Below, in pieces: positions 55,330-59,734 of a DNA stretch of 64,000 nt. Source of the stretch: an uncultured Rickettsiales bacterium (GTDB taxonomy: Bacteria > Pseudomonadota > Alphaproteobacteria > Rickettsiales > UBA1997). The DNA lies in contig CAJQHK010000002.1 of assembly GCA_905478165.1 (NCBI GenBank), forward strand, positions 3,840-67,839, written 5' to 3'. The notes under the pieces were generated by a model, which ran no database searches, had not been told where the DNA came from, and saw only the letters and a list, made by a program, of their open reading frames with translations. Position 1 is the stretch's first letter. Each line of letters starts with the position of its first letter. Position numbers and translations under genes: made by a program.

Positions 55330-55980
55330 ATGAGCAAAGAATTAATATTGGCAATTCCAAAGGGCCGAATATTGAAAGACTTATCTAAGATATTAGATCG
55401 CTCTGATATTAAAATTGAAGATGATTTTTTTGATGAAAATTCTCGTAAATTACTTTTCTCTTCTAACATAGGCAATCTTAAGGTTATTAAAATTAGAAGC
55501 TTTGATATCGCTAATTTTGTTAGACTAGGTGCTGCAGATATTGCAATCTGTGGTCACGATGTTTTAGAAGAGTTTTCGTCAGATCAAATTTACCCTTTAT
55601 TAGACTTAAACATTGGCAAATGTCGCTTGTCAATTGCGGCTAACAATTCTAGCAAGAAGGATTTTCGTAATGAAAGTCATGTTAGAATAGCGACTAAATA
55701 TGTTAACATATCAACCAAATATTTCTCTAATTTAGGAATTCAGGCCGAAGCAATTAAACTAAATGGTGCTATGGAACTGGCACCAAGATTAGACTTGTCT
55801 GACTATATCGTAGATTTAGTCGATAGTGGCAGAACATTAAAAGAAAATAATTTAGTCGAGATAGAAAAAATAATGGACGTCAGTTCTTATTTGATAGCTA
55901 ATGTAAACTCCTTTAAGACAAAAAAGAATGAAATCAGCAATATTATTGAAATATTAAAAAATATTAATGTCACTAATTAG
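55330..55980 (+). CDS. hisG: ATP phosphoribosyltransferase, short (HisZ-dependent) form
   Basis: 216 aa. N-terminal LAIPKGRILKD and the PRPP-binding block DLVDSGRTLKEN. Confidence 0.9.
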   Translation: MSKELILAIPKGRILKDLSKILDRSDIKIEDDFFDENSRKLLFSSNIGNLKVIKIRSFDIANFVRLGAADIAICGHDVLEEFSSDQIYPLLDLNIGKCRLSIAANNSSKKDFRNESHVRIATKYVNISTKYFSNLGIQAEAIKLNGAMELAPRLDLSDYIVDLVDSGRTLKENNLVEIEKIMDVSSYLIANVNSFKTKKNEISNIIEILKNINVTN

Positions 55981-58900
55981 CAAAATTCAGTATTTTGCAA
56001 GTTTTGCAACCAAGATTCTATTTTTTGCGATAATCATTGTCTCTTTAAACTCTTGCGACCCCTCTAACACTGAAACTGGCGCCATTAGTTTAGAAGAGCT
56101 GCAAAAATTCGACCCAATTGATAAAGGAATTAGATATCCGTTTGAAGGTGTTTCTGATGAAGATTTTGATCAAGATGGATACGAGAATGAAGAAGGTGAC
56201 CGAAATATAAAATGGGGTCGAAAAAGTTCTGATTGGCACCATGCCTGTGCTTCTGAAGAAATTCAATATAGTCTTTCTGGAGATATAATGGGAGCTATCC
56301 CCTTTGAACTAAAAATGGGAGTCTTTTTTGTTAATGCAGCCTTAAGTGCCATTAACCACGAGGGTTTCGACCCAATCACGGCTGTAACAGATCTAATGGG
56401 TCTTGATGGAGCTTTTACTGATCATTATTGGGACATGTGGAATCCTTCATGCTCTGTTATTGCAGCTGTTCAAGGAGTTGCTTTGTTAGCCGCTAATGAG
56501 GCCGCTACTTTGGCTTGCGATTCTTCGCCAGCTTCTGGACCTTCAAGTAAATTCAAGAAACTTAAAAAAGCCGCTATATACACAACTAAATTATCTGCAA
56601 AAATTGCATCATCAGCTGGTGGAGTAGGGCTAAAAAATATCCGGGATGCATATATTCTTGGTCATAAGTGCTTTGCTGCCCAAGGTTGGGCCGCTAGTAT
56701 GGCTGCTTCTGCCGCACTTGTTTGTGGCGGCGGTTTTGCAACTGGGGGGTGCGCCCCTAGTCTTGCCGCATCGTCTAAGGCGCAAACTTCTGCAATCCTA
56801 TGCTGCAGTGCTTCTGCCGCTTATGTTGCAGTTTTAACTATAGCACTAAATACAATTAAGATAAAATATGCTGCTGCCAGAAGGCATCAAAAGAAAGTTG
56901 TTGTCTGTGGTCATGATTGGTATGGATGGAAAGATAAAAAATACACCAAAAAAGGTGATAAAATATCCACGGAAGTAAGAGGGGATTACCACTCAAATAT
57001 CAGCTCCTCCACCGAAGATAATGTAAAATTCTACTCTTATCACAAGGTTTTGTTGGAAATGAACGCTAAAAATACATTAATTAGGAAAATTGAAAACCAA
57101 CCATATAGAGAATATGTTTACGGTGGTCGCGAGATAGCAGACCCAACAGACTCTGATGATGGTGGCTGTTTAATGCCGGACATTGATAAAGATAAATTGA
57201 AGAAGTTGTTTGGCTATTATGATACAAATAATGTCGCTGGCAAAGAAGAGATCAGACAAAGATACTATTTTAAAGGTTCCAACACAGAGCCTAATTTTGC
57301 TTGCCAGAGATTTCAATTGAGTAAAAACAAAAAGTTTAGCGAGGAGGAGCGAGCAAAATTTCTTGAAGCCTATAATTGCTGCAACAACAGAGGTAAAAAC
57401 ATAATTTGCCTTGAATATCTTAATGATTATAGCGCACGATTTACAGAAGGTGGAACAAAATATGATGGCCTAGTGCAGCCATATATAAAACAAGAACCCC
57501 CAAATGACCCCTCTATCCTGTATAAGGTTGCTGAATTCGGATATAATTCTGCAGCAAAAGAGGCAAACAACCCAATTAGAAAAAATATAGACTTTTGCGA
57601 AGTTGGTAGTAGACAATGTTCTCTTGGTGGAGGTCTAGACATTCCTATTGCTTACGAAGCTTATGAACACCCTTTAAGTGATAAATATATTTGTGCCAGG
57701 AGTTATTCTGTCTGCCCCTATAATTTTACCGTTGGAACGGGAACTGCCATGGGAGGTTCTGACATAAATTTTGACATAGATCGCGAACTAGGCTCTACCA
57801 AAATATTCAACAGTATTATTAAACTTAATATATCTTTTTCAACCTCAAAAAGAGAGAAAAACCCCAATAATGACTATGATTGTCAGTACCTCAATCATTG
57901 CACTATTGTTCCTGGCAATTTAGAAGGTATAGAATATGGCATAGCACATAATGAAGATAATTATTTTATACCGAGCGCATGCTCAGACGGAAGAGGAGAC
58001 TCTCAAAACTATCATTTCCAAAATAACTTATTAAGCAAAAAACTTGGCACAAACTCTTTAACAGCTCCTTTGGCGCAATGTATTACCGAGAGCTTTAATA
58101 ACTTACTATTAAATCAATATGGCGAAGACTCGGTTGAAGGATCGTACTTAGAGGGTGACGTTAGGAATTTGCCATCATTTTTTAGCACAATACAAGGTAA
58201 CTTACAGGATATTTTAAGGGCAATTTTAATCTGCGCTTTAGCGCTAATGGGCTATAGAATCTTATTAGCCGGAGGTGTGGAGAAGAAAGAAATCATGGGC
58301 TTTATTATTAAGTTAGCTTTTGTTTTATATTTCGTTTCTGGTAGTGCTTGGAAGACTATTTTTTCTGAAGGCTTAATCGCTATTAGTACAGAATTATCTA
58401 CGGCTCTAATCGAGATCGACGGTGAGGATGTAGATATTTTTTTAAATAAAGAAGAGATTGATTTAGTGAAAAAAGCGATTAACGGCGGTGTAGATCTCAA
58501 TAAAGTTGAGTCTATAACAGATCTAGATATAGATATATATTTTGGTATCGATAAATTACAGGATGGCAAACTATTTAAACTAAAAAATAAACCAGAGAAC
58601 GGTTATTACTTCCAGAAGGAGGGTAACGACTCTATTTACAACATTTCAAGCAATAATATTTGCAAATTTCCAAGATATAATAAGATAGGTGATGCCGATA
58701 TTACTCCTTCTTACCCTGATGGTAAGGAGTATATAAAGATATTTGACACATTAGATTGCATGATATCTTACGCTCTTGGTATAAGCGCTCTCTCTAGTGG
58801 ATCAAGCTTCTTTTCGACTATAATGATGTCGCTTTTAAGCGGTTTTATTGGAATGTCTTTTGCAATAGCATCGTTATTTTTTGCCATCTCGCTGCTATCG

Positions 58901-59734
58901 ATTGCAATAAAAATATTATCTATTTTTTGCCTCTGCATTATATATCTTTCGATGTTGATTTATATTTCTCCAATCGCAATTACGTGCGTTCTTTTTGGCA
59001 GAACAAAGGATATTTTTAGCTCCTGGATACAGGGTCTTATATCTTACTCTATTCAGCCGGCACTTATTTTTATTTTTGCAGGTTTTTTTATTAGCATCTT
59101 TAATTATATCGTCGTTACAGATCATGTAAGATTTGAGAACAGAATAACTGACGGCAATTATAAGCTAATTGAACCAAGCGAGAGAGTCGCATTCATTAAC
59201 TGCAATAACTGGAGTATTAATGGAGAATCAATGCGGCCCGGCGACAAGAGTATATATTGCTTTTTTAGAAATATATATAACCCAAATGACGAAAAATCAG
59301 TTAGCTTATTTCCTGATCTTGCCATTTTTGGTATGTATTTTCAGACATCTTATGACATTTTAGAAGGGTCTGCAGACAGTATTGCACAAAAAGGTATGGG
59401 TGATAGTAAGTTTTCTACGATGCTACAGATTGCTATTATTTTATATATTTTAAATTTTCTTGCCACATTAGTGCCCGAGATCGCGGCAAATATCACTTCT
59501 GGGGCCTCGTTAGGATCCGTTAGTGGTTTACAATATAACCCTTCTCAGCTATCGCAAAGGGTAAGAGGGTATGGCGATGGAGCTAAGGACATAGCTCGAG
59601 GTCTAGGATCTAGATATGGTAAAAAAGCTTACGATATGATAGAAAAGAAAAGAGAGGGATTCAGAAAGTCAGACACTAAGTCTGACGGTAAAAATAACGA
59701 TAACAACAAAACCATTGACCCATCCTTAAAATAA
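55967..59734 (+). CDS. large TrbL/VirB6-like polytopic membrane protein with lipoprotein-type N-terminus and Cys-rich ~700-aa N-terminal domain
   Basis: 1255 aa. Signal/lipobox ..IIIVSLNSC. The C-terminal ~500 aa has at least 6 TM helices, with LFGRTKDIFSSWIQGLISYSIQPALIF and ALMGYRILLAGG..IIKLAFVLYF segments resembling the VirB6/TrbL core. The tail is hydrophilic. Confidence 0.5.
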   Translation: MSLISKIQYFASFATKILFFAIIIVSLNSCDPSNTETGAISLEELQKFDPIDKGIRYPFEGVSDEDFDQDGYENEEGDRNIKWGRKSSDWHHACASEEIQYSLSGDIMGAIPFELKMGVFFVNAALSAINHEGFDPITAVTDLMGLDGAFTDHYWDMWNPSCSVIAAVQGVALLAANEAATLACDSSPASGPSSKFKKLKKAAIYTTKLSAKIASSAGGVGLKNIRDAYILGHKCFAAQGWAASMAASAALVCGGGFATGGCAPSLAASSKAQTSAILCCSASAAYVAVLTIALNTIKIKYAAARRHQKKVVVCGHDWYGWKDKKYTKKGDKISTEVRGDYHSNISSSTEDNVKFYSYHKVLLEMNAKNTLIRKIENQPYREYVYGGREIADPTDSDDGGCLMPDIDKDKLKKLFGYYDTNNVAGKEEIRQRYYFKGSNTEPNFACQRFQLSKNKKFSEEERAKFLEAYNCCNNRGKNIICLEYLNDYSARFTEGGTKYDGLVQPYIKQEPPNDPSILYKVAEFGYNSAAKEANNPIRKNIDFCEVGSRQCSLGGGLDIPIAYEAYEHPLSDKYICARSYSVCPYNFTVGTGTAMGGSDINFDIDRELGSTKIFNSIIKLNISFSTSKREKNPNNDYDCQYLNHCTIVPGNLEGIEYGIAHNEDNYFIPSACSDGRGDSQNYHFQNNLLSKKLGTNSLTAPLAQCITESFNNLLLNQYGEDSVEGSYLEGDVRNLPSFFSTIQGNLQDILRAILICALALMGYRILLAGGVEKKEIMGFIIKLAFVLYFVSGSAWKTIFSEGLIAISTELSTALIEIDGEDVDIFLNKEEIDLVKKAINGGVDLNKVESITDLDIDIYFGIDKLQDGKLFKLKNKPENGYYFQKEGNDSIYNISSNNICKFPRYNKIGDADITPSYPDGKEYIKIFDTLDCMISYALGISALSSGSSFFSTIMMSLLSGFIGMSFAIASLFFAISLLSIAIKILSIFCLCIIYLSMLIYISPIAITCVLFGRTKDIFSSWIQGLISYSIQPALIFIFAGFFISIFNYIVVTDHVRFENRITDGNYKLIEPSERVAFINCNNWSINGESMRPGDKSIYCFFRNIYNPNDEKSVSLFPDLAIFGMYFQTSYDILEGSADSIAQKGMGDSKFSTMLQIAIILYILNFLATLVPEIAANITSGASLGSVSGLQYNPSQLSQRVRGYGDGAKDIARGLGSRYGKKAYDMIEKKREGFRKSDTKSDGKNNDNNKTIDPSLK

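Follow-up and report, generated by a model that had tools for sequence, protein, structure and literature searches.

A hisG-linked extended VirB6-like protein in an uncultured relative of aquatic Rickettsiales

VirB6 forms a pentamer at the base of the stalk in type IV secretion systems (T4SS) (PMC9259494), and a Trp residue of VirB6 is essential and conserved (PMC2653234, PMC7648143). The VirB6 paralogues of the Rickettsiales carry extended N- or C-terminal hydrophilic regions, with the TrbL domain located towards the C-terminus in VirB6-1 to VirB6-3; cleavable signal peptides are predicted in VirB6-1 and VirB6-2, lipoboxes in VirB6-3 and VirB6-4, and the virB6 paralogues are co-transcribed with the housekeeping gene sodB (PMC7648143). 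In Rickettsia, RvhB6a-e are 674-1154 amino acids (aa) in length, the rvh genes are dispersed in islets (an 'archipelago'), and VirB5, which sits on VirB6 in the stalk, is missing from the rvh systems (PMC2653234). The present analysis concerns an open reading frame (ORF) of 1255 aa located directly after hisG in a 64,000-nucleotide (nt) stretch of contig CAJQHK010000002.1 (assembly GCA_905478165.1), the whole of which is referred to below as the window. This ORF probably encodes an extended VirB6-like inner-membrane subunit of an rvh-like Rickettsiales T4SS.

The organism is uncultured and AT-rich, and is probably a relative of aquatic Rickettsiales lineages that include GTDB family UBA1997. 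Most of the metagenome-assembled genomes (MAGs) that bear homologues were labelled by their depositors as 'Rickettsiales bacterium' or UBA1997, and the names of samples and isolates indicate that the clade of the window protein is probably marine. Freshwater UBA1997 have been described as small rods on cryptophyte algae with a fuller amino-acid biosynthesis than intracellular Rickettsiales, in a preprint that leaves type IV secretion undiscussed (bioRxiv 10.1101/2023.01.31.526412).

The TrbL/VirB6 domain

A first-pass annotation, made from the letters of the window, had proposed a TrbL/VirB6 core at residues ~730-1130 and a tie to the enlarged VirB6 paralogues of the Rickettsiales. Both proposals were upheld by the profile comparisons. 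Pfam family PF04610, with a cut-off of 25.9 bits, was matched at 51.3 bits (E=1.7e-13) by aa 949-1048, which aligned on profile positions 94-184, and the same family was matched by 45 of 45 diverse family members, among which no other Pfam family recurred. Matches to SabA_adhesion, RuMP_HxlA and PRK13852 (Pfam/NCBIfam) scored under their respective cut-offs and were set aside. Residue Trp1020 does not vary in any of three alignments, which comprise 45, 70 and 116 sequences, and it aligns with the Trp of 'FDQWAQQ' in TrwI, the VirB6 of R388, and with that of 'FDGWIRQ' in Ehrlichia VirB6-1.

A marine relative's VirB4, which is 54-55% identical to Ehrlichia VirB4, served as the query of a scan that reached Ehrlichia chromosomes with virB4-virB6-1..4 arrays. 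The family profile matched Ehrlichia VirB6-1 at about E=1e-60 and a canonical 322-aa VirB6 at E=4e-8, and the hhalign comparison with Ehrlichia VirB6-1 gave a probability of 100% (E=5.2e-43 over 399 columns). When PDB sequences were searched, the single protein gave no match; the 70-member family profile matched R388 TrwI/VirB6 at E=0.0016, aligned over SP..I..LF..T..F..W, and its other matches, at E=0.03 and above, were weak low-complexity alignments to unrelated proteins. Structure prediction was performed with AlphaFold2 (AF2). A model of the N-terminal domain alone, based on 8 close sequences, had a predicted local distance difference test score (pLDDT) of 34, and a model based on 70 sequences, with a mean pLDDT of 72.8 and confident along most of the chain, was used instead. 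In a Foldseek search of the PDB with this model, 9 of the 10 best matches were stalk chains of R388 (7o3v F-J, 8rt9_F, 8rtd H/I/L), with probabilities of 0.90-1.00 and target-normalised TM-scores of 0.32-0.55. By the measure of its sequence, a genuine TrbL/VirB6 domain makes up the C-terminal part. At 1255 aa, with an N-terminal domain of 715 aa (the N-domain) and TrbL placed towards the C-terminus, the window protein is several times the size of a canonical VirB6.

The hisG-virB6 pair and secretion genes in relatives

Ten full-length homologues with 48-100% identity were identified. Word-indexed searches returned one protein with alignment A3 and the same ten with alignment A5, and the wider diversity of the family was obtained from an exhaustive profile search. 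In this search, the profile of the N-domain (aa 31-745) was compared against 1.84 billion representative proteins and matched 146 clusters (50% identity), 110 of them at E<=1e-10, with members that are nearly all 950-1900 aa long. The VirB6 part was also present in 122 of the 124 proteins scanned for it (119 matches of at least 900 aa, the window protein and four close homologues). Names were checked for 30 of the 146 clusters; all were uncultured, the few named proteins were 'VirB6-like' or 'Rickettsiales bacterium', and no classical Rickettsia, Ehrlichia or Wolbachia genome was a source among these 30.

Locus scans of one genome per species, with the sub-family alignments A6 and A7 among the queries, gave 5, 70 and 80 loci; the MAGs concerned bear the labels Rickettsiales bacterium, UBA1997, UBA2645 or Alphaproteobacteria. 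Two paralogue groups were found. In the first, hisG is directly upstream in 68 of the 74 loci with enough upstream sequence, and in 66 of 69 loci the ORF starts before hisG ends, with an overlap of 1-23 nt (mode 14); this group includes the window clade and proteins similar to P0011, at about 26-30% identity. In the second, virB4 is directly upstream (51 of 53 loci). Both groups occur in many MAGs, and once both were present on a single 1.2-Mb UBA1997 contig. Since the genes that flank hisG-virB6 differ completely from relative to relative, the conserved unit is exactly hisG plus virB6. In a neighbour-joining tree (747 columns, no bootstrap) the window clade and the freshwater hisG-linked group were sisters, the two together were sister to the virB4-linked paralogues, and Ehrlichia VirB6-1 branched outside. 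Judged by sequence, the window protein belongs with the hisG-linked paralogues. No paper treating hisG together with virB6 was found in the literature searched, in which the pairing, a very tight and probably old one, appears to be unreported and would thus be a modestly new aspect.

The hisG-type VirB6 of loci L038, L042, L043, L056/L141 and L076 has no hisG upstream, and in four of the hisG-less exceptions a same-strand ORF of about 390-405 aa directly precedes the VirB6 gene. Locus L011 (GCA_013572995.1, JACCDX011060658.1) holds hisG-virB6, with the 26% identical protein P0011, on a bacterial-looking contig of 316 kb; because the contig numbers of this assembly exceed a million, the locus may come from a Rickettsiales-like associate or contaminant of a eukaryote. 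Many MAGs of the family (loci L006, L018-L066, L058) are titled 'Rickettsia typhi', 'Rhizobium sp.', 'Ulvibacter sp.' or 'Lentimonas sp.', labels or bins that are probably wrong because the contigs resemble the same aquatic Rickettsiales-like lineages.

Relatives carry further T4SS genes. In MAG C-137, the gene after hisG encodes a homologue with 59% identity to the window protein, and a virB4-virB6 pair is present on another contig; three VirB6 paralogues occur in this MAG in total. In a relative whose protein shows 53-57% identity to that of the window, the 869-kb contig JAYQKE010000015.1 carries hisG-virB6, virD4 and virB4-virB6 together. Housekeeping genes also surround the virB4-virB6 pairs (infC and pgpA in one case, a penicillin-binding protein gene and recN in another), so that extreme scattering of T4SS genes is normal in these lineages. 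The first-pass annotation had described the gene as an orphan that could encode a stand-alone envelope or channel component, or else a new architecture of its family. The first part of this description stands for the window, where the gene is alone, and falls for the relatives with enough sequence, which keep virB4, virD4 and more VirB6 genes elsewhere and in which the gene is one dispersed paralogue; thus it is an orphan locally but probably not at the level of the genome. The second is not sustained, as the same layout of signal, Cys-rich N-domain and VirB6 domain occurs in about 146 clusters.

Three features of these relatives are recorded here as well. A second TrbL protein of 1429 aa, with TrbL at aa 426-638, is encoded in C-137 (L007:14735-19024) 1.4 kb downstream of the hisG-linked copy; it is flanked by aminotransferase and ABC/methyltransferase/MiaB genes and has no counterpart in the window. 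A lone virD4 is located between glyA (serine hydroxymethyltransferase) and ABC/tatC, ~4 kb downstream of hisG-virB6, at L002:17997-19874 and L009:17947-19811, and forms a T4SS islet of one gene. On L009 (JAYQKE010000015.1, nanopore-derived and 'pilon'-polished) the virB6-like gene and virD4 are each broken into three ORFs, which probably reflects sequencing frameshifts rather than decay because the near-identical VirD4 of L002 is intact, as is its virB6 ORF.

Architecture of the protein and its locus

The features of the gene pair are given in Table 1. The N-terminus of the protein is MSLISKIQYFASFATKILFFAIIIVSLNSC; it contains the lysines K6 and K16, a hydrophobic core formed by residues 17-27, and Cys30 (codon 56054-56056). 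Cys30 and Asp31 are present in 9 of the 9 homologues with a complete N-terminus, and the lipoboxes of clade relatives (FSAC, LGSC and LSSC) are consistent with the lipobox consensus. Only the window clade (10 proteins, 48-100% identical) has a Cys-Asp lipobox-like site; in most family members, and in the sister clades, the signal ends with ..SYA followed by xYEGVRD and resembles a signal-peptidase-I site. The N-terminal signal would accordingly be of the cleaved lipoprotein type in the window clade and of the cleaved signal-peptidase-I type in the sister clades. An Asp at position +2 is the classical inner-membrane retention signal of Escherichia coli lipoproteins.

The 22 Cys residues of aa 31-745 amount to 3.1% of the N-domain, and 13 of its Cys, together with two Cys pairs in the loops of the VirB6 domain, are invariant among 45 diverse members. 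Its long-helix sub-domain is formed by AF2 helices at model residues 130-155, 165-186, 192-224 and 232-280 (add 30 for protein numbering; pLDDT about 80-93), and Kyte-Doolittle peaks at 164-182 and 274-297 mark hydrophobic, Ala/Gly/Ser-rich helices in the N-domain. The N-domain matched no Pfam family, and the Foldseek search with the mostly confident AF2 model gave no PDB match with a probability >0.2 other than VirB6 chains; as a conserved domain with this profile of matches, it seems modestly new. The 715-aa N-domain and the two loops with Cys pairs would be periplasmic and disulphide-bonded.

The hydrophobic segments of the VirB6 domain, from hydropathy analysis, are 748-772, 775-795, 948-1012, with about three helices, 1023-1054 and 1148-1176. 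The resulting layout of ~7 helices is compatible with both hydropathy and the AF2 helices, places the Cys pairs in presumed periplasmic parts and leaves a basic tail. The topology typical of VirB6 is that of a polytopic inner-membrane protein whose N-terminus and large loop are periplasmic and whose C-terminus is cytoplasmic. In homologue P0002 (alignment A1, columns ~960-1000) the first-loop segment 'WKTI.SEGLIAISTEL...DGED' is duplicated internally, which indicates that the first loop tolerates insertions. Tail residues 1190-1255 include 16 K/R and 9 D/E, and the sequence and length of the tail differ between homologues.

Most of the architecture proposed in the first-pass annotation was recovered. 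The ORF begins with an ATG located 14 nt inside hisG, as had been stated; the appearance of a signal peptide with a lipobox was recognised again; the Cys-rich region put at ~30-720, with its embedded hydrophobic block, corresponds to aa 31-745 and the two helices at 164-182 and 274-297; and the tail described as Lys/Gly/Asp-rich is basic. The proposal of at least 6 helices holds (~7), and that of a ~120-aa loop was revised to one loop of ~150 aa and a second of ~90 aa. The N-terminal extension and the lipobox had been thought atypical of described VirB6 proteins, yet both are already known in Rickettsiales paralogues (PMC7648143).

Table 1. Coordinates, in window numbering, of the hisG-virB6 pair and of the segments of the encoded VirB6-like protein
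Feature	Positions	Strand	Basis or remarks
Promoter-like site TTAATA-17-TATAAT	55151..55179	+	Consensus match only; 256-nt gap upstream of hisG
hisG, short-form ATP phosphoribosyltransferase, 216 aa, upstream gene of the pair	55330..55980	+	Pfam PF01634
Overlap of hisG 3' end and virB6-like start, 14 nt	55967..55980	+	Putative translational coupling
Extended VirB6/TrbL-family protein	55967..59734	+	1255 aa plus stop codon, ATG start
Signal peptide with lipobox-like L-N-S-C (Cys30), Asp at +2	55967..56056	+	Sequence inspection, homologue alignment
Cys-rich N-terminal domain, aa 31-745, 22 Cys, predicted periplasmic	56057..58201	+	Profile, alignment, AF2
Long-helix sub-domain, aa ~160-310, with Ala/Gly/Ser/Cys hydrophobic block	56444..56896	+	AF2, Kyte-Doolittle
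First hydrophobic hairpin, aa 748-795, start of VirB6 domain	58208..58351	+	Hydropathy, AF2; weak alignment to TrwI 32-102
Large loop, aa 796-947 (~150 aa), conserved Cys899/Cys931, variable insert	58352..58807	+	Alignments, hydropathy
Core TrbL segment, aa 948-1054, ~four hydrophobic helices, SP..I..LF..TK..F..W motif	58808..59128	+	Pfam 949-1048; TrwI 165-236; Ehrlichia VirB6-1
Trp1020 codon	59024..59026	+	Family-invariant, aligned with conserved VirB6 Trp
Second loop, aa 1055-1147 (~90 aa), conserved Cys1079/Cys1098	59129..59407	+	Alignment, hydropathy
Last hydrophobic helix, aa 1148-1176	59408..59494	+	Hydropathy, AF2
Basic Lys/Gly/Asp-rich tail, aa 1177-1255, predicted cytoplasmic	59495..59731	+	Hydropathy profile

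The hisG product is 77-97% identical to those of marine relatives. The promoter-like site upstream of hisG possibly marks the start of a hisG-virB6 transcript; the count of sites of this type is the same as the shuffle expectation. An alignment of seven upstream regions from relatives revealed no conserved regulatory element beyond AT-richness, and an Rfam scan of the window identified RNase P RNA and two tRNAs only. Downstream, 517 nt at 59735-60251 between the stop codon of the virB6-like gene and the convergent folB hold no credible ORF, a long interval for this compact window; they have no Rfam match, and a terminator-like hairpin is located at 60272-60291, just within folB. A near-identical copy of the window, with a virB6-like ORF that differs by one inserted Leu, is present on a 71.9-kb ENA metagenome scaffold. 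The rest of the window is housekeeping (uvrB, ftsH, rho, the gene for glycine-cleavage P protein, purB, ffh, typA, ftsA, purK, folB, rpe and others), and three ORFs in it, at 35454-36476, 49296-49790 and 61476-62345 (340, 164 and 289 aa), had no Pfam match.

Readings of the gene and comparison with known systems

As a subunit of an rvh-like T4SS, the protein would be exported by its N-terminal signal, in a lipoprotein-like manner in the window clade, and would be arranged with the disulphide-bonded N-domain and loops in the periplasm, ~7 helices in the membrane and the basic tail in the cytoplasm. By analogy with R388 TrwI, it may oligomerise, by itself or together with the virB4-linked paralogue, at the stalk base of the T4SS, from which the N-domain would project into the periplasm; since the Rickettsia rvh systems have no VirB5, the N-domain could, speculatively, fill the space of VirB5. 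The hisG and virB6-like genes would constitute a two-gene operon with coupled translation, which is suggested by the conservation of the overlap, and inheritance of the pair as a unit may predate the split of the marine and freshwater clades. The remaining T4SS genes would be located at other sites of the genome, as single genes or small islets.

Several points weigh against this interpretation. The lipobox L-N-S-C has an atypical Asn at -2 relative to the consensus [LVI][ASTVI][GAS]C, and for the bulk of the N-domain (aa ~31-660) no homologue was detected in Ehrlichia VirB6 paralogues, Pfam or PDB. The E-values of the Foldseek matches are weak (0.05-0.8), with the aligned part of the query unspecified. 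No other T4SS gene was found in the window by Pfam and contig look-up of nearly all ORFs of at least 90 aa and by tblastn with VirB4 and VirD4, none of these searches being aimed at excluding the small virB2, virB3 and virB7, and none was found in ~6 kb outside the window on the near-identical contig. The presence of a T4SS in the window organism would follow from relatives at 53-59% identity. We know of no individual Rickettsiales VirB6 paralogue that has a known function.

Alternatively, the hisG-linked paralogue may have been neo-functionalised as a stand-alone envelope protein with no role in a T4SS, whose large and fast-evolving domain, periplasmic or at the surface, would serve for example in envelope organisation or attachment to eukaryotes; in essence this is the stand-alone channel of the first-pass annotation. 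We regard this as unlikely. The gene is indeed always apart from virB4 and the other T4SS genes and bound to a housekeeping gene, and its N-domain, which has no known fold match, evolves rapidly: in comparison with a 78% identical copy, the ratio of non-synonymous to synonymous substitution rates (dN/dS) was 0.35 over the full gene, reaching 0.475 in the N-domain against 0.22 in the VirB6 part, versus 0.038 for hisG at a similar dS of about 0.35, so that the gene is under purifying selection yet fast-evolving, the N-domain most of all. Freshwater UBA1997 relatives are epibionts of cryptophytes (bioRxiv 10.1101/2023.01.31.526412), and VirB6-3 and VirB6-4 of Anaplasma phagocytophilum have C-terminal domains that are reported to be surface exposed (PMC7648143). 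However, the VirB6 core, the Trp and the pattern of transmembrane segments and loops are strictly kept across the family, and genomes with this gene retain virB4 and virD4 along with a second VirB6. In these lineages, moreover, T4SS genes, virB4-virB6 included, are as a rule dispersed among housekeeping genes.

It is also conceivable, with a rather low probability, that the hisG-linked paralogue is a distinct, undescribed T4SS module of epibiotic Rickettsiales from aquatic habitats, whose conserved, disulphide-rich periplasmic domain of 700 aa has a VirB5-like role at the stalk or tip or a role in contact with algae or protists, and that its production is tied to histidine or nutritional status by an obligatory translational coupling to hisG. 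The output of a secretion component would in that case follow histidine or nutrition in organisms that are presumed cross-feeders.

It is very improbable that the gene derives, as a TrbL/VirB6 remnant, from an integrated conjugative element or from a plasmid. PF04610 is best known from conjugative systems, and the window contains the ORF of a DDE transposase at 21877-22716; this ORF is 33 kb distant, however, and housekeeping genes are present on both flanks of the pair. The window is AT-rich, with about 25-39% GC by region and 39% over 56-58 kb, but the raised GC of the virB6-like gene is confined to codon positions 1 and 2, and its third-position GC of 0.31 matches that of its neighbours and is native. 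There is no sign of recent transfer. The linkage to hisG is chromosomal and is kept in lineages down to 26% protein identity, and among characterised homologues the closest is a VirB6-1 encoded on a Rickettsiales chromosome (profile-profile E=5e-43). On the strength of the native third-position GC and the housekeeping flanks, a mobile-element origin was rejected as effectively refuted. The transposase ORF (DDE_Tnp_1) is the only mobile-element trace in the window, and a solitary tRNA-Ala(TGC) at 20678-20753 is located about 1.1 kb from it, in an ORF-poor region at ~19.6-21.9 kb.

A reading of the ORF as a pseudogene in decay, or as a long frame that is spurious, has next to no probability, despite the missing T4SS neighbours and the frameshifted copy of L009 (a nanopore-derived, polished contig), and is refuted by an intact frame of 1255 codons in a genome with about 31% GC, hundreds of invariant columns among homologues, the dN/dS of 0.35 and an AF2 model that is confident over most of the chain.

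Understood as an extended VirB6-like T4SS subunit, the gene is a dispersed paralogue of the enlarged Rickettsiales VirB6 and not an orphan channel of new design, which removes a false lead. Traits of the rvh style, namely many giant VirB6 proteins and T4SS genes scattered singly, are extended to aquatic lineages that are uncultured and carry the label Rickettsiales, with documented algal epibionts among them. Two orthologous groups with a common N-domain, one hisG-linked and one virB4-linked, are defined, and the hisG-virB6 pairing provides a simple handle on the regulation of the secretion system in these organisms.

Among known systems, the protein resembles TrwI/VirB6 of R388 (PDB 7O3V/8RT9/8RTD) in the core motif with its invariant Trp; TrwI supplied the best Foldseek matches and, apart from the weak low-complexity ones, the only sequence-level PDB match of the family profile. 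In contrast to the window protein, R388 TrwI and Agrobacterium tumefaciens VirB6 are about 300-340 aa long and lack the 715-aa N-domain and the long loops, and canonical VirB6, which partners VirB5, is encoded in compact virB/trw operons (PMC9259494). With Rickettsia RvhB6a-e, as described in the literature, the protein shares giant size, divergent flanks of TrbL, the conserved Trp and scattered T4SS genes, and in Orientia one paralogue, virB6e, is located outside the array, as the window gene is non-arrayed (PMC2653234). The five RvhB6 copies of Rickettsia are arranged in tandem after virB3-virB4, whereas single genes among housekeeping genes are found here. Ehrlichia VirB6-1 likewise has an N-terminal signal, a Cys-rich extension (~390 aa in Ehrlichia) and TrbL towards the C-terminus. 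Its residues 365-783 align with window residues ~663-1212, from the last ~80 residues of the N-domain to the tail, which is itself aligned, as are the loop motif YP.GKEY..WD.LDC and the SP..I..LF..TK..F..W core. Over the first ~630 N-domain residues no homology is detectable to Ehrlichia VirB6-1, which by hhalign also lacks an insert of about 90 aa in the first, large loop. The window gene follows hisG and not virB4, and according to the tree its paralogue group split from the virB4-linked group within the aquatic lineages. As in Ehrlichia and Anaplasma, a housekeeping gene adjoins the secretion gene or genes: sodB there (sodB-virB3-virB4-virB6-1..4), and hisG here.

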